64,000 nucleotides of DNA, from the NCBI GenBank assembly GCA_022821495.1, contig JAJEDN010000104.1, positions 14,043 through 78,042 on the forward strand, read 5' to 3'. How positions within the stretch are numbered: position 1 is the stretch's first letter; each line of letters opens with the position of its first letter. This document shows positions 4,813 through 59,744 of this stretch, piece after piece. The stretch comes from Candidatus Poribacteria bacterium. Lineage in GTDB: Bacteria; Poribacteria; WGA-4E; WGA-3G. Under the pieces are notes generated by a model. It did not search any database. It saw only the letters and a list, made by a program, of their open reading frames with translations, and was not told where the DNA came from. Made by a program: the position numbers and the translations under genes.

Positions 4813-4853
4813 CCAAATCGACGCTCAATAAGAATAGGATCACTACACGGGAA

Positions 4854-5204
4854 TGGAGGTGGCGGGAATCGAACCCGCGTCCGAAGGCATTTCAATAGAG
4901 GCTACTACATGCTTATCACAGGTTTTGAGGTTCGTCTATAAGACTCCCCTGTGCAGGATTCAGCATAGACTATCTCAAAAGTGGTTCGCGGCACGCTCCT
5001 TGAGAATGAGCGAGCGGCTAGCCCGTATTGCGACGCTTTAACTTCCCTGACGGGCAACAGGTCGGTCAAGCGTAGCCGCGTTTAGGCAGCTAGTGCTAAT
5101 TCTTCATCAGCATTTATAAGTGTTCCGCCTATTTAACGAGGCCTGCGGAGACCTCGGCATGCAACCTATATCTCATCCACCTTCGTCGAAACCTTGACAC
5201 CCCC
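4854..5204 (-). ncRNA. ssrA: tmRNA (SsrA)
   Basis: 5' end GGGGGTGTCAAGGTTTCGACG. 3' end GCGGGTTCGATTCCCGCCACCTCCA. The acceptor stem has a G3:U pair. Internal reading frame ends NADEELALAA-TAA (stop at 5082-5084). Lies directly downstream of smpB. CCA is not encoded. Confidence 0.9.
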
Positions 5205-10068: not shown

Positions 10069-10153
10069 TGCCGGAGGTCGGACTCGAACCGACACGGACC
10101 CAGGGCCCGCGGGATTTTGAATCCCGTGCGTCTACCAGTTTCACCACTCCGGC
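10069..10153 (-). tRNA. tRNA-Leu(CAA)
   Basis: Reverse complement reads GCCGGAGTGGTGAAACTGGTAGACGCACGGGATTCAAAATCCCG...GGTTCGAGTCCGACCTCCGGCA. Long variable arm and anticodon loop TTCAAAA. Confidence 0.9.
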
Positions 10154-24223: not shown

Positions 24224-24268
24224 TTTTTATTAGTTTCTTCTTAGTACCAAAAACAAAGTTCGTAATGT

Positions 24269-24442
24269 AATGGAGAACGGATATACGCAATAGAACACTA
24301 AAGCATCAACACACCTGAACGATCCGCAAGGAAATATAAAAAAATGGAGAACGGATATACGCAATGAGACTCAAAAGCATCAACACACCTGAACGATCCG
24401 CAAGGAAATACAAAAAACCGAACCGCAAGGTATTATAAAAAA
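24269..24442 (+). repeat. R2 element, about 2.3 tandem units of 74 bp
   Basis: Unit is AATGGAGAACGGATATACGCAA...CCGCAAGGAAATATAAAAA. The final partial unit ends CCGAACCGCAAGGTATTATAAAAAA and overlaps the stop codon of the minus-strand gene at 24433. Confidence 0.7.
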
Positions 24443-25182
24443 TTGTGGAGATGCGTTTTAACCAAATTGTCTTCGGGTTGATACCCTAATACCTCAACAG
24501 CACCGCTGATATCAAGATAACTCTGCTGATAGCCATCAGAATTCGCAGACCGTCCATAAGTAACCAGATATTTAACCGGCCCATCATAATCCACAGCCAG
24601 CCCGAAAAGTTGCACACAATCTCGCGGTGTTAGGAGCGTGCTACAGTGGCGAATCCCACTCGGTTCATAAGTCCCATTGAAACTCCCGATTCGGAAGCTG
24701 ATGAACCGCATATCGTACGCATCAACGAGATACCGTCCCGCAATCTCCGCCATCCCCTTCATCGCGCCGTACCAACCATCAGGACGAAACTGATCCGCGG
24801 TCGAAAACCGAGGTGGCGAGTTCAACCGCTCATTCCAACCCGAAACATGATTCGTACTCGCATACACAATCTTCCGAATACCGCCCACTCGCGCCGCCTC
24901 AAATATATTCATAGATGCCCCGATATCGCTAACTTCATCCGGCACCTTCGGCACTGAATTTTGACGTATATAAGCGAGATGCACCAAAACATCCTGATCA
25001 CGACACAACTCCTGCATCGCCGCGTAGTCCCGAATATCCGCCTGCACGACACGAGAACTCGCACCCACAATCGGGTTAATATCCATTAACGTTAATGTGT
25101 AGGTATCTTGTTCTTCCCACGCCTTCCAAAGCGCGGTCCCGACTGTACCAGCCGCACCCGTGATAAGTACTCGTTGCTTCAT
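24433..25182 (-). CDS. NAD-dependent epimerase/dehydratase family protein
   Basis: Rossmann motif VLITGAAGTVG right after the ATG at 25182. The GTG-initiated extension to 25284 in the ORF track is unlikely. Confidence 0.7.
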   Translation of the reverse strand: MKQRVLITGAAGTVGTALWKAWEEQDTYTLTLMDINPIVGASSRVVQADIRDYAAMQELCRDQDVLVHLAYIRQNSVPKVPDEVSDIGASMNIFEAARVGGIRKIVYASTNHVSGWNERLNSPPRFSTADQFRPDGWYGAMKGMAEIAGRYLVDAYDMRFISFRIGSFNGTYEPSGIRHCSTLLTPRDCVQLFGLAVDYDGPVKYLVTYGRSANSDGYQQSYLDISGAVEVLGYQPEDNLVKTHLHNFL

Positions 25183-31665: not shown

Positions 31666-31718
31666 GAATATCCGCGTCCTGTACAAGATCGGAAAGGATA
31701 GATGGGATAGCAGGAACT

Positions 31719-31815
31719 GATTGGAAGGAGGGAAGGATGGAGGAATGGAAGAAGCGTTGCTACACAATCTTCCAATCTTCCAGTCTTCCAATTCCCTACT
31801 TCCAGTCTTCCAATC
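31719..31815. repeat. heptamer-based imperfect inverted repeat (TCTTCCA-type units)
   Basis: Left arm GATTGGAAGGAGGGAAGGATGGAGGAATGGAAGA. Right arm is tandem TCTTCCA-like heptamers. Confidence 0.55.
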
Positions 31816-31879
31816 CCAGACGCAAACGAATAGATTCTGTGTAAGCCCTAAAATTGAAAATTGCTTGAAAGGAAAACCA

Positions 31880-45435: not shown

Positions 45436-45504
45436 TGATGGACTCCTGCGTGAATTTGATAATTAAAAAACTGTTGAACCCAAAACAGAGCTTGCAACAA
45501 TGGT

Positions 45505-45597
45505 GCAAGGCTTTTGCTTGGGCGTTTCTTCAGATACACGGAGATGAATATGAAATCCCAGATCCACCCAAACGAACCGCAAGGTATAATTAAAAAA
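45505..45597 (+). repeat. R2 element (with R3 module) ending at the first conserved trpB codon
   Basis: GGCTTTTGCTTGGGCGTTTCTTCAGATACACGG...AACGAACCGCAAGGTATAATTAAAAAA. Confidence 0.65.
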
Positions 45598-46782
45598 CTT
45601 CCTGACGCAACCGGGCATTTCGGACAATTCGGGGGTAGATATGTTCCCGAAACCCTGATGCCCGCGCTCTTAGAACTCGAAGACGCATACAACGCACTCA
45701 AAGATAACGCCGACTTCCAAGAAGAATTCCGGTACTACCTCCGCGAATACGTCGGACGCCCCAACCCACTCTATTACGCCGAACGTCTGACAGAAACCCT
45801 CGGCGGCGCGAAGATATATCTCAAACGGGAAGATCTCAACCATACAGGCGCACATAAAATCAACAGTGCGATCGGACAAATCCTTCTCGCACGCTGGATG
45901 GGCAAAAAACGCATCATCGCCGAAACCGGTGCAGGACAACACGGCGTGGCAACAGCCACCGTCGCAGCAAAATTCGACATGGAGTGCGAAGTCTATATGG
46001 GTGAAGAAGACATAGAACGGCAAGCACTTAATGTTTTCCGTATGCAGTTGATGGGAACGAAAGTCGTGCCGGTGAACTCCGGTTCGCGGACCCTCAAAGA
46101 CGCGATCAACGCCTGTTTCCGAGACTGGGTCACGAATGTCCGTACCACCTACCTACTGCTCGGTTCGGTTGTCGGCGCGCACCCTTATCCGATGATCGTC
46201 CGAGACTTCCAAGCCGTCATCGGTGAAGAAGCGAGAGCACAGATTTTAGAACAAGAAGGCGCGTTGCCGGATTGTGTCGTCGCTTGTGTCGGCGGTGGCA
46301 GCAATTCGCTCGGTATGTTCTATCCGTTCTATGCCGATGAATCCGTGCGAATGATCGGCGTAGAAGCCGCCGGTGAGAGCATCCGTAGCGGACGACACGC
46401 CGCACCGCTTACTGCAGGCAGCGTCGGTGTCTTTCACGGTGCTAAGTGCTATCTATTGCAAGAAGACGATGGGCAGATAACGCCAGCGCACTCCATCTCT
46501 GCCGGGTTAGATTATCCGGGTGTCGGCCCCGAACACAGTTATTACCGTGAAACCGGTAGAGCCGAATATGTCCCTGTTACCGATGCAGAAGCGGTGGAAG
46601 GGTTCCAGTTGTTATCAGAAACAGAGGGTATCATCCCCGCATTAGAATCCGCACACGCCATCGCTTACCTGCGTGAACTTGCACCGAAACTCGGTAAAGA
46701 TAAAGTCGTCGTTGTCTGTCTCTCAGGCAGAGGCGACAAAGATGTCTATACCATCGCAAAAGAATTAGGCATCAGCCTCTAA
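45550..46782 (+). CDS. trpB: tryptophan synthase beta chain
   Basis: Motifs [23 protein letters not shown] and GGGSN. ATG at 45550 with GGAG 6 nt upstream. The first 16 codons lie inside the R2 repeat. Confidence 0.9.
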
Positions 46783-49577: not shown

Positions 49578-52500
49578 ATGACAGAAGCGTCAATTCACGT
49601 ACAAGGTGCGCGAGAACACAACCTACGCAATATTGACATCCAACTGCCAAAAGATAAACTCATCGTCTTCACCGGCGTTAGCGGTTCCGGTAAATCCTCA
49701 CTCGCAATTGACACCGTTTACGCCGAAGGGCAACGACGATACATCGAGTCTTTATCCGCTTACGCACGGCAATTTCTCGGACAACTCGGAAAGCCAGATG
49801 TAGATGAAATCGTTGGGCTCTCCCCGTCTATCGCTATCAGTCAAGGATCAACCGGACATAACCCGCGCTCCACGGTCGCCACTGTAACCGAAATCTACGA
49901 TTACCTCCGTGTGCTCTATGCCCGTGTCGGGCAATTCCACTGCCCCGAATGCGGTCGTGAAGTCGGCTCACAAACGCCCGCGGACATCGTCAATACTTTA
50001 CTCGACTATCCCGAACGCACAAGGCTCATCATTTTAGCACCTATTGCCAGAGGTTCCCGCGGCGCACATGAAAAAGAAATCGAGGACCTACGAAACGCCG
50101 GTTTCGTCCGATTACGCGTGGATGGCGAAATACACGAAATCCGCCCAGGCTTCGCGCTCAGTCGCAACCAACGCCACGACATTGATCTCGTCATCGACCG
50201 GATCATCATCAAAGACGGCATCGAACCACGGATCACGCAGGCAGTAGACACAGCACTCTTGCGCGGAGAGGGTAGCATGCTTGTCCAAGTTGTTCCGATT
50301 GAAGGCGAGGCATCCCCATTTGTGTCAGAAGAAGACGACCTGCTCTTTAGTAGAGATTACACCTGTTCGCACTGTCGGATAAGTTTCGTGAAACCGGAAC
50401 CCCGCCATTTTTCTTTCAACAACCCCGACGGAATGTGTGAAAACTGCAGGGGTTTGGGTGTACAAATGGGGATCCTACCGCAGTTGATTATCCTTGATGA
50501 TACGCTCTCTATCATGAAAGGCGCTATCAGTCTGTGGGGCTCCCTTAACACGCAAAAACGGGCCACAGAAAAAGCCATCGCCGAAGCACTCGCAAGACAC
50601 CTCGGATTTGATGTCAAGACACCTTGGAAGGAACTCACACCGGAACAACAAAACGCTGTCCTCTACGGCACCGGCGACGACGTCCTCACGATTATCACCC
50701 AGGCAAAAAGCACACACAAAAAACGAAAACAACGCCGACGACACCGCGTCCACTTTCACGGTATCATCCCCGCTGAAGAACAGAAGTACTACTTTGATGA
50801 TGATGAAACCGATGAAGACGACTTTCCTGATTACTTCGTCAAAATGCCCTGTCGGGAATGTGAAGGGACCCGACTTAACTCGTGGACAAAAGCGATAACG
50901 ATAAACGAGACACCTATCACCGATATCCTTGAAAAATCTATTCAGGACGCGACCCATTTCTTCAATGAAGTCGAACTTCCTGAACGCGAGGCGTTCATCG
51001 CCAAGGAACTCCTGAAGGAAATTCGAGGACGGCTCGGATTCCTTATAGATGTCGGACTCGGATACTTGACGCTCTCACGTCCCGCACCGACACTTTCCGG
51101 CGGCGAAGCGCAACGCATCCGTCTCGCCAGTCAGGTAGGCGCAGGGCTGCGTGATGTTACCTACGTGCTTGATGAACCGAGCATCGGATTACACCCACGC
51201 GACCACGCCGGGCTACTCACGACACTCCTAAACCTACGGAATCAAGGCAATACCGTTATTGTTGTTGAACACGATGAGGCAACGATGTTGGTAGCTGACT
51301 GGATCATCGACTTCGGTCCTGGTGCAGGCATTAAAGGTGGAAAGATAACGGACATCGGGACACCCGCACAATTCATTAAGGAGAGTCGCACCCTTACCGC
51401 CCAATACCTTCGTGGCGATAAGGTAATCATCCAGCCAGAATCCCGCCGCCCAACAGGAGACAAATGGATACAGATACAGAATGCACGTCAAAATAACCTG
51501 AAAGCGATCAGCCCTAAAATACCGATCGGCACCCTCTGCTGTGTAACAGGCGTCAGCGGTTCAGGAAAGAGCTCCTTAATCCACGATATCCTCTACAACG
51601 CACTCGCTCGCGACCTCATGAAGGCAAAAACCGTGCCAGGTGACTACGACGATATCCGAGGGATCATCAAAGAAAAAGACGTACCTATCTCCAATGTTAT
51701 TGACAAGATTATCAACATTAACATGGCACCCATCGGACGAACACCACGCTCCAATGCTGCAACCTATACAAAGGTGTTTGATGCGATTCGCGCGCTCTAC
51801 GCCAGTTTGCCCGATGCGAAATTACGAGGCTATAAACCCGGACGGTTCAGTTTCAATGTTGCCGCCGGTAGATGTGAAGCATGTAGCGGCAACGGCGCAA
51901 AAAAGGTCGATATGGGGCTCCTCTCTGATGTCTGGGTGGAGTGTGAAGTGTGCAATGGGAAACGGTTTAACACCGAAACGCTCGCGATTAAATATAAAGG
52001 CAAAGACATCGCTGAAGTCCTCGAAATGGATATTGATACCGCACTCGTCCACTTCGCCGATATTCCAAGAATCGCAAGAGGGTTAAAACTACTCCACGAT
52101 GTCGGCCTCGATTACATTAAACTCGGACAACCCGCACCGACACTTTCCGGCGGCGAGGCGCAACGCATCAAACTTTCAAAGGAACTCTCCAAACGAGGCA
52201 CCGGCAAAACCCTCTATATACTTGATGAACCCACAACGGGGTTGCATTTTGACGATGTAAATAAACTACTAACGATCCTTCATCGACTCGTAGACGACGG
52301 TAACACCGTTGTCGTCGTAGAGCATAACCTTGAGGTCATCAATTCCGCAGACTACCTCATCGATTTAGGACCGGAGGGCGGCGTTGGCGGCGGCACCATC
52401 GTTGCCGAAGGCACACCTGAACAAATCGCTGAGATGCCTGAATCCTACACCGGACAAGCACTTCGCGGGGACTTCGATATCTCCTCTGCTTCCGACCCGA

Positions 52501-55439
52501 ATGAACCACAAGGTATAATTGCAGATTCCGACGAAATCGTAGCCCGTAACGAAGAGGAGGGCGGATATACGGAACGGAACGTGAAACGACCCATTCGCTT
52601 GAACGAACCGCAAGAGAAAACTAAAAACATCACAGTGCAAGGTGCTACCGAAAATAACCTCAAAAACGTGGACATCGATATCCCGCACCGAAAAATGACG
52701 GCGTTGACAGGGGTCAGCGGCTCTGGAAAGACATCTCTCGCACTTGATACTATCTACGCCGAAGGACAACGTCGTTATATAGAGACCCTTAGCACCTATG
52801 CCCGTCAGTTTATAGGACAGATGGAGAAACCGAAAGTCTCAAAAATTGAGGGACTTTCACCCGCTATCGCAATTTCAAATGCAAATGCAGGTCAAAACCC
52901 ACGCTCAACGGTCGCGACAATCACCGAAATCCACGATGGACTCCGCACGCTTTACGCCAGATGGGGGAACCCCCACTGTCCTGATTGTCTTGAAGAGGTC
53001 CAACCCCAAAGTGCCGAACAAATCACACAACAGGTTTTTGAAATCCTCCCGCAAGAGCGGGTGGATGTGCTTGCCCCGCTTACGAACTTTTTACTTATTT
53101 CAGATGCCGAAGAAAGCGTGTCAAGAGGTAAAATCATTGACATCAACGCCAATGAATCCGCTTATGGACTCAAGGGAAACGAGGATTACGCCGATGTATT
53201 CAGCCGATTGCAACGCGCAGGTTTCGCACGCGTCCAAATTGATGGCGAAATTCACAGACTTGATGAAGCTCCTAAACTTAGCAAAGGCATTCGCCATGAA
53301 ATTTTTATCGTCATAGATCGCGTCGAACTCGTTGACGCAGAAAAGGCGCGGTTTACGGAAGCCGTCGAATTAGCACTCCTTCAAAGCGGAGGGTTCGTAC
53401 TCATTCAGAAGACACGTTCCACCACTCGGGCATCCACGAGTAGCAACCGATCAAAACAAAAAACCACGGAAAAACCAGAGGCGGAGCCAACTGATAAAAA
53501 ATTCTTCAGCGAACACGCCATGTGTGCTTCCTGTGGTAGTAACTTCGCACAGCTGACACCACGCCACTTCTCCTTTAACAACAAAGTCGGCGCGTGCGAC
53601 TTCTGCGACGGACGCGGCAGGAATTTACACCCACCACACGACGCATGCAACCAATGTCAAGGCACTCGTCTGAAACCCTTTCCGAGCTGTGTCATGTTTG
53701 AAGATACAACCATCGCCGAACTGATGGAAATGTCAATTACCGAAACCATTGCTTTCTTCAACGTCCGGTTGAAAGAAATTGAAACGCAAGTCGGCAATGA
53801 AACACAAAACAGTAAAGCGGATCCTTCTGTAGCGAAAGGGGTGTCAACCTCCAGAGCGACACATCCTGCACTCCATGTACACACTTCGCCTGAATTTGAA
53901 GCCGAAGTCCTCCAGCAAATTCAGATACGCCTTCAGTTCTTAGAAGATATCGGTCTCGGTTACCTCGCATTAGACCGTGGGGCACCGACGCTTTCGGGCG
54001 GCGAAATGCGTAGAATCCAACTCGCAAGTCAACTCGGCAGCGGGCTCACCGGCGTAACCTATATCCTCGACGAACCGAGCATCGGGCTACACCCGCGCGA
54101 CCAAGAACGTCTCATCAACGCGCTCAAGGAACTCCGCGATATCGGCAACAGCGTCCTCGTCGTTGAACACGATCGCGATACAATATTAGCCGCCGACCAT
54201 GTGATTGACTTCGGACCTCAGGCAGGCAAAAACGGTGGTGAGATTGTCGCTACCGGTACACCGGACACCTTCACTATAGAAGGTAAAGAGGTTTCCGAGA
54301 GCCATAAATCATTGACGCAAGCCTATCTTTCCAATGAAGTCGAAATCCGTGTTCCAAAAACGCGACGTAAAGGGACAGGCAAACAGTTGGCAATCTCCGG
54401 GGCGAAAACGAATAACCTCAAAAACATTGATGTCAAGATTCCGCTCGGAACACTCACCTGTGTAACCGGTGTTTCCGGGTGCGGAAAAAGCTCACTCGTT
54501 GAAGGCACACTCAAACCAGCACTTGAAAGTCGCAGCTCTATCAAAACCGGCGATGCCGAAGATCGCCGTTATACCCACCATATCAGCGACAACCAGCGGG
54601 AACCCATATATAACGACTACGGGGTACCGGAGTATGAAAGCATCCGCGGTGTTAGCTATATCAAGCGGCTCATCAACGTAGACCAGAAGGCGATCGGTGA
54701 AACACCGCGTTCCAATCCTGCCACTTATACCGATTTGTTCACGAAAATCCGTGAACTCTTCGCCGAGCAACAAGATGCCCAGATGCGCGGCTTCGGTATC
54801 AGTATGTTCAGCTTCAACCTTGCTGCTGGACAGTGCCACGTATGCGAGGGACACCGCTTCAATCGTATCGAGATGCATTTTCTGCCGGATGTCTGGATAC
54901 CGTGTGAAGCGTGTAATAGCACGGGTTACAATATGGATACGCTTGAGATTCGTTATAATGGGAAAAATATCGCTGAAGTCTTAGATATGACGGTAGATGA
55001 GGCACTCACATTCTTCAGTGACAGTTCACGTATCTGCCGGACACTCCAGATGTTAGCAGATGTCGGATTGGGCTACATCCAGTTAGGTCAACCCGCGACG
55101 ACACTCTCCGGCGGTGAGGCACAGCGCGTCAAACTCGCGAAAGAGTTAGCACGCCGCCAAACCGGTTCAACGCTCTATATCATGGATGAACCGACCACAG
55201 GACTCCACTTTGATGACATCCAAAAACTCCTCAAAGTTCTGAACAGGCTCGTCGATGCGGGGAACACAATCATCGCTGTGGAACACAACATCGATGTCAT
55301 CAAATCCGCAGACTGGATTATCGACTTGGGACCGGAGGGCAGTAAAGGCGGCGGAAACGTCGTTGCAATGGGCACACCAGAACAGGTCGCATCGGTCCAA
55401 GAATCCCATACGGCTCGCTTCTTACGTGAAGTCTTGTAA
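49578..55439 (+). CDS. uvrA: tandem UvrA-UvrA fusion (excinuclease ABC subunit A x2)
   Basis: Four Walker A motifs (GVSGSGKS, GVSGSGKS, GVSGSGKT, GVSGCGKS), four LSGGE signatures and zinc CxxC modules in both halves. Canonical UvrA C-terminus ...HTARFLREVL at the end. Confidence 0.88.
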   Translation: MTEASIHVQGAREHNLRNIDIQLPKDKLIVFTGVSGSGKSSLAIDTVYAEGQRRYIESLSAYARQFLGQLGKPDVDEIVGLSPSIAISQGSTGHNPRSTVATVTEIYDYLRVLYARVGQFHCPECGREVGSQTPADIVNTLLDYPERTRLIILAPIARGSRGAHEKEIEDLRNAGFVRLRVDGEIHEIRPGFALSRNQRHDIDLVIDRIIIKDGIEPRITQAVDTALLRGEGSMLVQVVPIEGEASPFVSEEDDLLFSRDYTCSHCRISFVKPEPRHFSFNNPDGMCENCRGLGVQMGILPQLIILDDTLSIMKGAISLWGSLNTQKRATEKAIAEALARHLGFDVKTPWKELTPEQQNAVLYGTGDDVLTIITQAKSTHKKRKQRRRHRVHFHGIIPAEEQKYYFDDDETDEDDFPDYFVKMPCRECEGTRLNSWTKAITINETPITDILEKSIQDATHFFNEVELPEREAFIAKELLKEIRGRLGFLIDVGLGYLTLSRPAPTLSGGEAQRIRLASQVGAGLRDVTYVLDEPSIGLHPRDHAGLLTTLLNLRNQGNTVIVVEHDEATMLVADWIIDFGPGAGIKGGKITDIGTPAQFIKESRTLTAQYLRGDKVIIQPESRRPTGDKWIQIQNARQNNLKAISPKIPIGTLCCVTGVSGSGKSSLIHDILYNALARDLMKAKTVPGDYDDIRGIIKEKDVPISNVIDKIININMAPIGRTPRSNAATYTKVFDAIRALYASLPDAKLRGYKPGRFSFNVAAGRCEACSGNGAKKVDMGLLSDVWVECEVCNGKRFNTETLAIKYKGKDIAEVLEMDIDTALVHFADIPRIARGLKLLHDVGLDYIKLGQPAPTLSGGEAQRIKLSKELSKRGTGKTLYILDEPTTGLHFDDVNKLLTILHRLVDDGNTVVVVEHNLEVINSADYLIDLGPEGGVGGGTIVAEGTPEQIAEMPESYTGQALRGDFDISSASDPNEPQGIIADSDEIVARNEEEGGYTERNVKRPIRLNEPQEKTKNITVQGATENNLKNVDIDIPHRKMTALTGVSGSGKTSLALDTIYAEGQRRYIETLSTYARQFIGQMEKPKVSKIEGLSPAIAISNANAGQNPRSTVATITEIHDGLRTLYARWGNPHCPDCLEEVQPQSAEQITQQVFEILPQERVDVLAPLTNFLLISDAEESVSRGKIIDINANESAYGLKGNEDYADVFSRLQRAGFARVQIDGEIHRLDEAPKLSKGIRHEIFIVIDRVELVDAEKARFTEAVELALLQSGGFVLIQKTRSTTRASTSSNRSKQKTTEKPEAEPTDKKFFSEHAMCASCGSNFAQLTPRHFSFNNKVGACDFCDGRGRNLHPPHDACNQCQGTRLKPFPSCVMFEDTTIAELMEMSITETIAFFNVRLKEIETQVGNETQNSKADPSVAKGVSTSRATHPALHVHTSPEFEAEVLQQIQIRLQFLEDIGLGYLALDRGAPTLSGGEMRRIQLASQLGSGLTGVTYILDEPSIGLHPRDQERLINALKELRDIGNSVLVVEHDRDTILAADHVIDFGPQAGKNGGEIVATGTPDTFTIEGKEVSESHKSLTQAYLSNEVEIRVPKTRRKGTGKQLAISGAKTNNLKNIDVKIPLGTLTCVTGVSGCGKSSLVEGTLKPALESRSSIKTGDAEDRRYTHHISDNQREPIYNDYGVPEYESIRGVSYIKRLINVDQKAIGETPRSNPATYTDLFTKIRELFAEQQDAQMRGFGISMFSFNLAAGQCHVCEGHRFNRIEMHFLPDVWIPCEACNSTGYNMDTLEIRYNGKNIAEVLDMTVDEALTFFSDSSRICRTLQMLADVGLGYIQLGQPATTLSGGEAQRVKLAKELARRQTGSTLYIMDEPTTGLHFDDIQKLLKVLNRLVDAGNTIIAVEHNIDVIKSADWIIDLGPEGSKGGGNVVAMGTPEQVASVQESHTARFLREVL
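52494..52628 (+). repeat. R2 element sequence forming the in-frame linker between the two UvrA units
   Basis: AATGAACCACAAGGTATAATT..GTAGCCCGTAACGAAGAGGAGGGCGGATATACGG..AACGTGAAACGACCC..GAACGAACCGCAAGAGAAAACTAAAAAC is collinear with 58444-58583 and 57585-57673. Confidence 0.7.
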
Positions 55440-56607: not shown

Positions 56608-57495
56608 ATGCGAAAAGAGGTACGCTGGGAACGGATGTTCCCTGACGAATTGGAAGCAGCACTTAGCGAATGTCCCGCCGTCTATTTTACTTATGGGCTT
56701 TGCGAACCCCACGGTCCCCAAAACACGGTAGGACTTGATGCCCTCAAAGCACACGGCATCGCTTGTCGTGCCGCACATACGCACGGCGGCATCGTCGCGC
56801 CACCCGATTATTGGCATATCCACGAGCACGGCATGTATGCGAATTGGGCATACCGGAATGTCGGCGAAGTGCGCAGCTGGCTGACAGCAATGCCAGCCTG
56901 GCAACATTTCAAAAACGTCTGCTATCACGTCCGTGCTGCGGATGCGCTCGGATTCCACGCCGCTATCTTTCTCACCGGACACTATGGACCCAATTGGCAA
57001 GACCTCAAGACCCTTCTATCCCTAATCCAGCCGCACTTCGCTATGCAGCTTTACGGACTTCCCGACTTTGAAGCAAATACACCGGGCTTCGACCATCAAG
57101 GCAACGGTGGCGATCACGCTGGCAGAGTCGAGACCTCACTCCTGTGGGCATTGGAACCTGACTGTGTTGACATGTCACGGATGCCTGCAGCGGATGCAGA
57201 AGGACCGCATTTCGCGATGGGAGGAAACGCACCCGACTCCGACCGGCGCATCGGTGAACGTATGGTAGAAGATGAAGTCGCATGGCTCGGAAAAAAGATG
57301 CAGGAATTATTGGAGGCTTACGCACAGCAAAACATTGCTGAACGCCAACCTGTAACTTTCGAGGAAGTCGAACAGATATGGACAGAAACCGTATCCCCTG
57401 CCTTGAAAACCTTTGAGACGATGAAAAATCCAGACGAATCGCCACCGGAAGATTCACAGTGGTTCCGCCAGTGTAAACTGCCAGAACTTTCCTAA
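56608..57495 (+). CDS. creatininase-family amidohydrolase
   Basis: CEPHGPQNTVGLD and LTGHYGPN resemble the E-x-HG...D and GHGGN motifs. Moderate call. Confidence 0.5.
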   Translation: MRKEVRWERMFPDELEAALSECPAVYFTYGLCEPHGPQNTVGLDALKAHGIACRAAHTHGGIVAPPDYWHIHEHGMYANWAYRNVGEVRSWLTAMPAWQHFKNVCYHVRAADALGFHAAIFLTGHYGPNWQDLKTLLSLIQPHFAMQLYGLPDFEANTPGFDHQGNGGDHAGRVETSLLWALEPDCVDMSRMPAADAEGPHFAMGGNAPDSDRRIGERMVEDEVAWLGKKMQELLEAYAQQNIAERQPVTFEEVEQIWTETVSPALKTFETMKNPDESPPEDSQWFRQCKLPELS

Positions 57496-57584
57496 GAGAG
57501 ATTTTTAATTTTTAGGCACCTGAACTGTGCTCCATTCCACTACGCGCAGGTTTTTGGTTAAGAATGAAACATTAAATGGAAATT

Positions 57585-57673
57585 GTAGCCTGCAACAACG
57601 GCGCAGGCGGATATACGCAAAGGCACGTGAATGTCCTAACCACCCTGACCGAACCGCAAGGAATAATTAAAAA
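57585..57673 (+). repeat. R2 element ending exactly at the ATG at 57674
   Basis: GTAGCCTGCAACAACGGCGCAGGCGGATATACGCAAAGGCACGTGAATG...CCGAACCGCAAGGAATAATTAAAAA. Confidence 0.65.
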
Positions 57674-58447
57674 ATGGAAACGACAAATGGACAACTCCTT
57701 GAAAATTACCGAAAAGACGGATTCCTGACCGGCATCCACGTCGCTGAAAACGCTGAAGCTTTACATTTTCGTAAAGAATATGATGCGTTAGAAGCCGAAG
57801 TCGGTGCAGAGAAATGTGAAATCGGTCTCATTGATTGGCACTTTGATTATAAATTCATTTGGGACCTGGCAACCCATCCCAAAATCGTTGATGTCATTGA
57901 GACGCTTATCGGACCAGATGTGATGCTGTTAGCCACACACTTCTTTTGTAAGTATGGACCTCGCGAAAAATTCGTCGCATGGCACCAAGACGTGACCTAC
58001 TGGGGACTTGAGCCACCAGATGCAGTTACCGCTTGGTACGCCATAGATGATAGTGACACAGGCAACGGCTGCATGCAGGTAATCCCCGGAAGCCATCAGC
58101 GCGGCATACAAGAGCACGGAACATCAGAACAGGAAGGCAATCTGTTAAGCATCAATCAGGAAGTTCCGGTCACCGAAGCGGAAGCAGAGACTGCCGTCGA
58201 TCTTATCCTAAAGGCGGGTGAGATGTCTATCCATCACGGGCAGATAATCCATGGGAGTCTACCGAACCATTCCACGAGGCGGCGATGTGGTTTAACAGTC
58301 CGCTATATCCCACCGACAGTAAGACAAGCAGAAGATAATTCGCTGAAACGTCCATGGAAACCGATCCTACTGCGTGGCGAAGACCGACACCAAAATTTTA
58401 CCACCGTGCCGAATCCATTCCCACACCACGAAGGTTCTAAACGATGA
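57674..58447 (+). CDS. phytanoyl-CoA dioxygenase (PhyH) family protein
   Basis: Motifs WHQDVTYW, PGSHQ and HGSLPN. Confidence 0.75.
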   Translation: METTNGQLLENYRKDGFLTGIHVAENAEALHFRKEYDALEAEVGAEKCEIGLIDWHFDYKFIWDLATHPKIVDVIETLIGPDVMLLATHFFCKYGPREKFVAWHQDVTYWGLEPPDAVTAWYAIDDSDTGNGCMQVIPGSHQRGIQEHGTSEQEGNLLSINQEVPVTEAEAETAVDLILKAGEMSIHHGQIIHGSLPNHSTRRRCGLTVRYIPPTVRQAEDNSLKRPWKPILLRGEDRHQNFTTVPNPFPHHEGSKR

Positions 58448-58583
58448 AGTAGCCCGTAACGTAGTGGAGGGGTTTTTGCTTGGGCGTTTCTTCAGATATA
58501 CGGGAAGACACGTGAATGCCCAAATTTACATTACCGAACCGCAAGGAACAATTAAAAACCGAACCGCAAGGAAAATTAAAAAG
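58444..58583 (+). repeat. R2 element (with R3 module and a duplicated tail) ending exactly at the ATG at 58584
   Basis: GTAGCCCGTAACGTAGTGGAGG-[GGTTTTTGCTTGGGCGTTTCTTC]-AGATATACGGG..CACGTGAATG..CCGAACCGCAAGGAACAATTAAAAACCGAACCGCAAGGAAAATTAAAAAG. Confidence 0.7.
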
Positions 58584-59744
58584 ATGTACGATGCAATTGT
58601 GATTGGTGCTGGTGGGATGGGTAGCGCGACCGCATACCACCTCGCTAAATCTGGCGCAGATGTGCTCGTCTTAGAACAGTTCCAACGCGGGCATACCCTT
58701 GGTAGTTCACACGGAGAAACCCGTATCATCCGTTTCTTCTATGATAAGCCTTTCTACACCGAACTGATGAAAACCGCCTATGCTGAGTGGCGCGACCTTG
58801 AATCGGTATCTAAGAAATCGTTGTTGTTCATCACAGGAAGTGTCGGTATCGGTGCGAAGGGAAACCCGTATGGACGCGCTGCACGGCGCAGCTTAGATGC
58901 CGCAGGCGTTGAATCCGAGTGGTGGGATGCCACACAACTCACAGAACGTTTTCCACAATTCCGGGTGTCAAATGAGATGGACATTCTCTATCAGAAAGAC
59001 ACCGGTTTTCTCCGCGCGGCCGAGTGCGTCTCCACCCACTTGCAATTAGCAGAACAACACGGCGCGACAATTCGAGAGGAAACGCCTGTAACCAATATAG
59101 ATTGGCAAACAGATGTCCCAACTGTTCGGACCGAAAATGACTCGTTTCAGGGAAGAAAAGTTATCCTGACAGCGGGCGCGTGGGCTGGTACGCTACTCGC
59201 AGAATTGAATCTTCCACTCACGGTTACAAAACAACAGGTATGCTACTATCAACCTGCAGACAGCAAACGTTTTCAGCCAGATCGGTTTCCAGTCTTCACG
59301 GAATCAACGCCTGATGGAGAATTCATCTATGGCATTCCTGCTTTTGGTTCTTTTAATGCGGGGGGCGGACTAAAAATTGCCCGCCACGGCAGAGGACAGA
59401 TCATCTCGCCCGATACGCTTAAACGCACACCGGATGCCGATTACATCGCCCATATAGATGCTTATGTGCAAGAACGCCTCCCAGAACTCGGGAAAACTAC
59501 GCACGCCGAAGTCTGTCTCTATACCGAAACCCCAGACGAAGACTTTATCATCGACGCACACCCACACTGCTCGGATGTTTTGATTGCGGCAGGTTTTTCA
59601 GGACACGGTTTTAAATTTTGTGCACTCGTCGGACGTATTATGAGCGAACTCACACAAAACGGTGAAACCGATTTTGACATCTACCCATTTCGTATTGACC
59701 GAAAACACGAAATCTCAAGCGGTATCCCAAGACTACAATCCTAA
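58584..59744 (+). CDS. FAD-dependent oxidoreductase, monomeric sarcosine oxidase/N-methyltryptophan oxidase-like
   Basis: YDAIVIGAGGMGSATAYHLAK dinucleotide motif and C-terminal GFSGHGFK. The ORF-track extension from 58374 runs through the repeat. Confidence 0.7.
   Translation: MYDAIVIGAGGMGSATAYHLAKSGADVLVLEQFQRGHTLGSSHGETRIIRFFYDKPFYTELMKTAYAEWRDLESVSKKSLLFITGSVGIGAKGNPYGRAARRSLDAAGVESEWWDATQLTERFPQFRVSNEMDILYQKDTGFLRAAECVSTHLQLAEQHGATIREETPVTNIDWQTDVPTVRTENDSFQGRKVILTAGAWAGTLLAELNLPLTVTKQQVCYYQPADSKRFQPDRFPVFTESTPDGEFIYGIPAFGSFNAGGGLKIARHGRGQIISPDTLKRTPDADYIAHIDAYVQERLPELGKTTHAEVCLYTETPDEDFIIDAHPHCSDVLIAAGFSGHGFKFCALVGRIMSELTQNGETDFDIYPFRIDRKHEISSGIPRLQS

Follow-up and report, generated by a model that had tools for sequence, protein, structure and literature searches.

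UvrA normally acts as a UvrA2 dimer, and a duplicated 'class III' UvrA was reportedly described in Xanthomonas by Goosen and Moolenaar in 2008. Among the short repeats of bacterial genomes, REP elements are short imperfect palindromes preceded by a conserved GTAG. The RPEs are small Rickettsia repeats inserted in frame in genes (Ogata et al. 2000, 2002, as summarised in PMC10969869), and the MIRUs are mycobacterial intercistronic units (Supply et al. 1997, as summarised in PMC3184786). Here we analysed a stretch of 64,000 nt from a Candidatus Poribacteria bacterium (assembly GCA_022821495.1, contig JAJEDN010000104.1, positions 14,043 to 78,042), hereafter the window, in which a gene for two UvrA units in a single polypeptide contains a linker that derives from a dispersed repeat family, here named R2, and is read in frame as peptide. 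R2 entered this gene when it was already fused, where it replaced an older linker, and it did not cause the fusion.

Organisation of the tandem uvrA gene

The tandem UvrA of the window consists of two complete units in one uninterrupted open reading frame (ORF). Pfam matches for UvrA_inter and ABC_tran were found in both halves, and for UvrA_DNA-bind in unit 1 only; the two units share ~49% identity. The linker is bordered by ...RGDFDI (SYTGQALRGDFDI) before and ITVQGATENNL (ITVQGATENNLKN) after. The gene and its parts are as follows:

49578-55439, + strand: single ORF for the tandem UvrA-UvrA protein, 1953 aa (Pfam domains; protein identical to database P0121)
49578-52481, + strand: UvrA unit 1 (ORF and Pfam)
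52482-52628, + strand: linker of 49 aa, ~1.35 tandem R2 units in frame (profile search, alignment)
52493-52520, + strand: partial 3' end of an upstream R2 unit, module E' (CGACCCGAATGAACCACAAGGTATAATT), encoding DPNEPQGII (nhmmer)
52533-52628, + strand: full R2 unit in the linker (nhmmer, E=1.4e-17; placed in the 79-copy alignment A3)
52539-52562, + strand: hairpin module A of the linker R2 unit (GTAGCCCGTAACGAAGAGGAGGGC)
52563-52571, + strand: GGATATACG box of the linker R2 unit, followed by the 33-nt D region
52605-52628, + strand: module E of the linker R2 unit (GAACCGCAAGAGAAAACTAAAAAC)
52629-55436, + strand: UvrA unit 2 (ORF and Pfam)

The linker is an R2 repeat read in frame

The five R2 copies elsewhere in the window were used, with the linker left out, to build an nhmmer profile. 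It matched the linker at 52533-52628 with E=1.4e-17 and 58.8 bits, over profile positions 2-97 of 100 and with no indels; the best match outside the family in the window had E=0.055, and chance similarity between linker and R2 is ruled out by this difference. A partial match at 52493-52520 (GAACCACAAGGTATAATT; profile positions 64-91, E=0.088) precedes the full unit, so that the linker amounts to ~1.35 tandem R2 units, and the corresponding module E' is intact (GAACCGCAAGGTATAATT) in the relative L001. The other R2 stretches of the window are listed below, L122 being the fully syntenic locus of the closest relative, whose protein P0122 is 93% identical to that of the window:

57579-57676, + strand: R2 copy whose A-run adjoins ATG 57674 of a PhyH-family gene (nhmmer; absent in L122)
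58443-58587, + strand: R2 copy that includes the 21-nt module B and has module E twice, adjoining ATG 58585 of the DAO gene (absent in L122)
45481-45600, + strand: R2 copy with module B at the trpB start (nhmmer; absent in L122)
24252-24445, + strand: tandem R2 array with a full unit, a 5'-truncated unit and an extra module E (nhmmer)

The linker is collinear with the copies at 57579-57676 and 58443-58587 through the blocks GTAGCCCGTAAC / GGAGGG / CGGATATACG / ACGTGAA / CGAACCGCAAG..AA.TAAAAA, and exactly 33 nt separate GATATACG from GAACCGCAAG in every copy of the window, including the linker. The R2 module order is kept, with hairpin A, GGATATACG, the 33-nt D region and CGAACCGCAAGG..AATTAAAAA. 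The outer stem (GCCC/GGGC) and the loop-closing C-G pair of hairpin A are intact in the linker, with an inner A/A mismatch at alignment columns 24/31. The 3' A-run of the linker has no start codon; it is followed by ATC, the earliest of the conserved codons of unit 2, which encodes Ile.

A first-pass annotation made from the letters alone had proposed that the linker is built from R2 in frame. The full-length, ungapped profile match and the 49 aa encoded at 52482-52628 bear this out, and the linker also takes its place on the consensus of the family, in the 79-copy alignment A3. Two copies cited there were said to end at an ATG, which they do, at 57674 and 58585. They were also called non-coding, which they are not purely, since 58443-58587 shares sequence with the stop codon of the upstream PhyH-family gene, and from it an open frame runs on into the DAO gene.

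The fusion predates the R2 linker

It had further been proposed that the loss of a stop codon and an ATG joined two uvrA genes that lay on either side of R2, and this part of the annotation is contradicted by the orthologues. All 120 full-length Poribacteria orthologues (120/120; 1593-1999 aa, 69-100% identity) recovered by a full-length protein search are fused; this query was used for the orthologue set because a 383-aa junction query returned only proteins of at most 671 aa. At the six related loci that extend beyond the gene, the fused gene occupies the syntenic locus in every case (6/6), and an unfused state was found at none of them. This locus has an Era GTPase gene upstream and a DnaJ gene downstream. 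The junction search recovered the same junction between a UvrA C-terminus and a UvrA N-terminus in proteins of Planctomycetota, Verrucomicrobia and Armatimonadota, indicating that the fusion is old, as its junction is shared with other lineages. The linkers in these three phyla are short, basic and mutually unalignable. The C-terminal parts of their unit 1 show 56-65% identity to unit 1 of the window and 48-55% to unit 2, and the N-terminal comparison is ambiguous. A literature search on UvrA returned nothing on tandem UvrA.

The ATC that follows R2 had been taken for a lost ATG. It is instead the codon of a conserved Ile in the first UvrA strand (I.V.GA..NNLK), present in all homologues, and it is already there in the closest relative L122, which has a linker unrelated to R2 (class W, see below) and reads GCA-ATC-GCT-GTG-CAA-GGT at the junction. 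Its presence in this sister and in all homologues shows that it is not a decayed start codon.

Unit 2 (52629-55436) has no Pfam UvrA_DNA-bind match; its insertions, specific to the lineage, include NFLLISDAEESVSRGKIIDINANESAYGLKGNEDY and a low-complexity stretch, TRSTTRASTSSNRSKQKTTEKPEAEPTDKK. With these insertions of its own and no UvrA_DNA-bind match in unit 2, the two units are not equivalent.

Linker classes and recombination

Linkers were classified in an ingroup of 99 proteins at least 79% identical to the window protein:

Class W, 57/99: ~27 aa, WRDAKQRLIEPELADAFEQAQEKRTA
Class R2-type, 18/99: a single unit, a unit with 8 extra aa, a unit with module B, or two tandem units (as in P0148)
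Class K, 14/99: putatively derived from a palindromic repeat family
Class S, 6/99: probably derived from a palindromic repeat family
Other or unclassified, 4/99

Linker length ranges over ~22-84 aa, and the sequences are unrelated between close relatives. Module B of the R2-type linkers is the same 21-nt module found in intergenic copies. The W linker bears a faint likeness to R2 (AAGGAACCTGAA versus AATGAACCACAA) and may be a decayed copy, but the R2 profile gives no match to it.

In a simple neighbour-joining tree of the proteins with the linker removed, the ingroup forms two clades, and linker class and tree are discordant. The window protein lies deep in the upper clade, with a sister 93% identical to it, and is nested in a clade whose other members all carry the 27-aa, non-R2 W linker. 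A second R2-linker protein of the upper clade, P0031 (locus L001), is not the closest relative of the window protein. In the lower clade, proteins with W, R2, K and S linkers are intermixed even where they are closely related. Only a subset of one uvrA subclade has R2 linkers, which are the minority state.

Pairwise comparisons carry a recombination signal. Between the window and L122 (W), identity is 93-97% on either side as far as the linker, where ~150 nt stand in place of all 81 nt of the W linker. Against L124, which has an R2 allele and belongs to the other clade, the flanks of the window are ~80-83% identical and the linker 93-95%; a linker so much closer than its flanks to distant R2 alleles points to the import of an allele. 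L124 (R2) and L125 (W) are identical at 59-60 of every 60 positions over more than 500 nt on each side, and their linkers are unrelated. The simplest reading of these comparisons is that short-tract homologous recombination over conserved flanks moves linker alleles between lineages.

All R2-type alleles share the 1.35-unit architecture, a non-R2 junction segment (GCAGATTCCGACGAAATC), the left junction and the D region, which points to a single origin of the R2 linker. A search of ~1 Mb of Poribacteria DNA gave no further match to the junction segment.

A second repeat family as the probable source of the K and S linkers

Searches with the DNA of the K and S linkers revealed a further repeat in the window:

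31705-31825, no strand assigned: palindromic repeat copy with GGAAGG / CTTCC arms, in an intergenic gap (nhmmer with K and S linker DNA, both strands)

The GGAAGG arm of this repeat is purine-rich and the CTTCC arm pyrimidine-rich, and the sequence folds as a long hairpin (-25.4 kcal/mol, z=-4.7). The S linker DNA gave near-full-length matches on both strands in at least 12 loci, with E values down to 5e-9, and the best match of the K linker DNA was window positions 31714-31810, on both strands, with E=1e-4. By these matches a repeat origin is well supported for the S class and modestly for the K class. With K and S linkers drawn from a second repeat family, the inter-unit linker would be a recurrent landing site for dispersed repeats.

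The R2 family

R2 is a dispersed repeat of ~95 nt. From 5' to 3' it consists of a hairpin, the conserved GGATATACG box, 33 nt of variable sequence and a CGAACCGCAAGGAAnAATTAAAAA module. The consensus of the 79-copy alignment A3 is ..CGTAGCCTGTAACGAAGTGGAGGGCGGATATACGGAAAGG.ACGT.AA....CAAACCCACCT.ACCGAACCGCAAGGAAAAATTAAAAAA. An exact-pattern scan with one genome per species found at least 118 R2 stretches, nearly all in metagenome-assembled genomes (MAGs) of Candidatus Poribacteria; the exceptions were one 'uncultured bacterium' MAG and one Octadecabacter MAG, the latter possibly by chance. Some of the stretches are tandem arrays of direct repeats with a period of 137-142 nt. In ~1 Mb of Poribacteria DNA the R2 profile gave 198 matches, 134 of them full length.

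The 5' hairpin, of which the family has two subfamilies, shows strong covariation, and in intergenic copies the D region is hypervariable. Among the stem variants are GCCC/GGGC, GCTT/AAGC, GTCC/GGAC, GCAC/GTGC and GCCTGC/GCAGGC. Pairing is kept in 83% of cells, compared with 30-53% in slid controls, and 85 compensatory cells were counted versus 20+-11 in shuffled alignments, none of 500 shuffles reaching 85. In alignment A3 the AG that immediately precedes the stem is conserved at 90% or more, and the GT before it less so.

R2 is closely tied to gene starts. A same-strand start codon opening at least 100 codons lies within -8 to +30 nt of 112 of 181 R2 3' ends, and 68 of these 112 are at exactly offset -1, where the A-run's final A is also the A of ATG; 5' ends, taken as a control, gave 5/122. 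Of 73 non-coding copies, 47 are free of stops in the linker's own frame (GAA CCG CAA GGn, E P Q G), against 3/73 and 10/73 for the other two frames. In other genomes, 29 copies lack a start codon at the junction and read through in the linker frame into the downstream gene, as in the DAO genes of L021 and L050 and the trpB of L007.

Module E alone (..AACCGCAAGGAATAATTAAAAAATG) was also observed directly 5' of the uvrA-uvrA start codon, in L123 (2953-3003) and L002 (137-175); the window leader of this gene, CATCAGGAGCCAAATAGAAAAAAATG, differs from these.

Rfam 15 at gathering thresholds gave no R2 match over the whole window, its only hits being one tmRNA and one tRNA, and none at E<=1 over 57450-58650, which includes two R2 copies. 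The tmRNA (183 bits) and tRNA genes lie at 4851-5204 (- strand) and 10069-10153 (- strand). A sigma-70 promoter scan of R2 found no more sites than in shuffled sequence; TATAAT occurs within some E modules (GGTATAATTAAAAAATG) and is a possible promoter lead only. The 5' end (..CGTAGCC..) and the 3' end (..AATTAAAAAA) of the consensus are not complementary, so no terminal inverted repeats are present, and no target-site duplication was seen at four filled and empty pairs (window versus L122), where native sequence is replaced. Lacking both features, R2 is not a canonical MITE (a miniature transposable element with inverted repeats). A literature search found no paper on Poribacteria intergenic repeats. 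The 49-aa linker, searched against 1.84 billion representative proteins, retrieved four short ORFs on tandem R2 arrays and one TPR false positive; this search is uninformative, because cluster representatives may lack the insert and the query is short.

In-frame use of other R2 copies

All four R2 copies compared between the window and L122 (the linker and the trpB, PhyH-family and DAO sites) are absent from L122, which marks a recent gain or loss of R2 in this region. At trpB (ORF 45514-46782), the native ribosome-binding site and ATG are replaced by R2, and the TrpB N-terminus is R2-encoded in the linker frame; trpB of L122 has another N-terminus and no R2. In the DAO (FAD-oxidase-family) gene, four N-terminal codons are replaced by R2 and the native ATC (Ile) has become ATG. 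At the same junction, L021 and L050 keep ATC or ATA, which requires the gene to begin within R2. In front of the PhyH-family gene, R2 replaced the native spacer and ends at the native ATG. The array at 24252-24445 lies between two minus-strand genes and has a stop codon in the linker frame, showing that R2 is not always upstream of a co-oriented gene.

An extra segment of 85 nt (57500-57584) arrived with the R2 upstream of the PhyH-family gene, and its core CTCCATTCCACTACGCGCAGGTTTTT recurs in L113, L107, L065, L069 and L026. From this segment, R2 may be part of a longer composite unit.

A second in-frame R2 was found inside unit 2 of lower-clade uvrA genes (L124 8690-8780, L125 8627-8717 and L123 7690-7780). 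It is located between GTPDTF and SLTQAYLS, encodes IARNEVEGDSKERHVKTQTPERYPQGKIKK in the linker frame and is preceded by a (GGTCAGC)n fragment of the second repeat family; the window has only TIEGKEVSESHK at this position. One R2 frame is shared by the linker, the TrpB and DAO N-termini and this internal site.

Proposed history of the linker

We consider it likely that an old UvrA-UvrA fusion received, in the window lineage, an R2 linker cassette that was spread by recombination, recently replaced the W linker and serves as a flexible tether. The gene encodes an anciently fused single-chain UvrA-UvrA whose units, by analogy with the usual UvrA dimer, presumably fold as an intramolecular version of it. 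The segment tethering them is a hypervariable cassette of ~22-84 aa, translated, in its R2 form, in the sole R2 frame that is usually stop-free. The R2 cassette would have arisen once, in the linker of the already fused gene, diversified in place, and then passed between Poribacteria lineages by short-tract homologous recombination, recently taking the place of the ancestral 27-aa W linker in the window lineage. The linker peptide is most likely only a flexible, disordered tether. This is suggested by its variable length, by the unrelated sequences in close relatives and by a weak AlphaFold2 model of a junction fragment (mean pLDDT, the predicted local distance difference test score, 57), in which the linker has pLDDT ~30 and no secondary structure; the model is taken as soft support for linker disorder only.

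Several points weigh against this history. The neighbour-joining tree has no support values and contains odd placements (P0234-P0236). The full-length protein search was apparently length-filtered, so that split genes of ~950 aa would go unlisted. The recombination tract is short, and over the 60-120 nt upstream of the linker the window shows no clear excess of identity to the R2 donor that was sampled, so that the latter's lineage is at most a candidate source. The tether role is something we infer from sequence and a weak model, as we also infer the direction and mechanism of the original R2 insertion; 'insertion' is a description here and not a mechanism, given that neither terminal inverted repeats nor a target-site duplication are seen.

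Alternative explanations

The fusion of adjacent uvrA genes with an intergenic R2, through loss of a stop codon and of an ATG that is now ATC, gains some appeal from the fact that R2 usually separates genes of the same orientation, its end meeting the start codon of the second, and from the junction R2|ATC in uvrA, which resembles real gene starts such as R2|ATC TAC GAT of the DAO gene in L021. It is nevertheless extremely improbable: the fusion is present in each of the 120 orthologues and at the six related loci that reach past the gene, other phyla have it as well, the window protein is nested among W-linker proteins, the ATC is an ancestral Ile codon in the W sister and all homologues, and R2 alleles are a minority, derived state. 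We give almost no credence to the reverse direction, in which the R2 family would descend from the uvrA linker coding sequence, as its one predominantly open frame could suggest. The family, spread over many Poribacteria, far exceeds the linker alleles in diversity, R2 linkers occur in a subset of one uvrA subclade, nested among W alleles, and the linker itself holds the tandem junction typical of R2 arrays. A straight insertion of an intergenic R2 of the same genome into the W linker, with no import from another lineage, would agree with an apparently recent mobility of R2, three other copies within 15 kb being absent from L122. We regard it as unlikely, because uvrA R2 alleles in other lineages have the 1.35-unit architecture, the junction segment and the D variant as well and match the linker at 93-95% identity, as against ~80% in the flanks, and the junction segment is unmatched elsewhere in ~1 Mb of Poribacteria DNA.

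Two further explanations turn on gene starts. R2 could be a mobile 5'-leader cassette that targets start codons and hit the start of unit 2, maybe driving internal initiation there, an idea we consider rather unlikely. Such a cassette, of a kind not described before, would do without terminal inverted repeats or target-site duplication and replace the native ribosome-binding region and sometimes the first codons, supplying a hairpin and an initiation region or, when read through, an N-terminal or linker peptide; the uvrA junction would have been hit as R2 treats the unit-2 start as a gene start, and unit 2 might also be made alone by internal initiation. That module E of the linker in fact drives internal initiation at AUC or AUU, so that unit 2 is also made separately, seems from the sequences very unlikely. 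Module E adjoins true start codons genome-wide, and most R2 linker alleles retain it undamaged (GAACCGCAAGGAAAAATTAAAAAC|ATT in L124 is one case), with the junction exactly at the first conserved codon of unit 2; AUC and AUU, however, are poor start codons, module E of the window is degraded (AAGAGAAAACT), and the W, K and S alleles have no module E, so separate expression is not required.

Significance

The R2 linker of uvrA offers a clean, datable case of a dispersed bacterial repeat becoming protein sequence, a route documented mainly in Rickettsia, and it corrects an attractive but wrong gene-fusion model. An inter-domain linker can be a safe harbour, in which alleles from at least two repeat families coexist and are swapped by recombination even between nearly identical strains. 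Beyond uvrA, R2 is an abundant element linked to gene starts in an uncultured phylum of sponge symbionts. It affects gene calling in Poribacteria, where start codons and N-termini lie inside repeats, and bears on the spread of expression signals through Poribacteria genomes.

Comparison with known systems

The window protein resembles the tandem UvrA proteins of other bacteria in having two units in one polypeptide, with junction-spanning homologues in three phyla. The linkers of those proteins are short, K/R-rich and mutually unalignable, and not repeat-derived as far as seen; repeat-derived UvrA linker alleles are specific to Poribacteria.

Some features of R2 recall REP and Correia-type elements. 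Its short hairpin after a GTAG-like motif is a likeness to REP elements, which are RAYT/Y1-mobilised, and is a lead only; its strong tie to gene 5' ends is a likeness to Correia-type MITEs (PMC3184786, PMC10969869). Unlike REP elements, R2 forms direct tandem units and not inverted pairs, and compared with REP and Correia-type elements no terminal inverted repeats, target-site duplications or standout sigma-70 promoter were seen in it.

The likeness to MIRUs is closer. Both are units of ~40-100 bp between the cistrons of operons, co-oriented with transcription, often in tandem and with an open frame; their ends overlap the stop and start codons of the flanking genes, and filled and empty sites occur among relatives. 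R2 has no sequence similarity to MIRUs and differs in its hairpin with covariation support. Short direct repeats are reported for filled MIRU sites (PMC3184786), whereas R2 replaces sequence with no detectable duplication.

Like the RPEs, R2 is a dispersed repeat of ~100-150 nt with copies both intergenic and in ORFs, used in one consistent frame, and it adds a conserved peptide of 30-50 aa at insertion-tolerant positions, which for R2 are N-termini, a linker between domains and, within unit 2, the segment separating its two ATPase halves. The phylum is another, and no sequence relationship to the RPEs is expected, as R2 matches come almost only from Poribacteria. R2 also has a local hairpin only and is not globally palindromic, its usual home is directly upstream of start codons, and its uvrA site, unlike those of RPEs, is a multi-allelic cassette exchanged by recombination and also used by a second repeat family. 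R2 in uvrA is a new example of the in-frame co-option of a repeat, of the kind known from the Rickettsia RPEs, and its less ordinary features are the multi-allelic, recombining linker cassette and the tight link of R2 to start codons.

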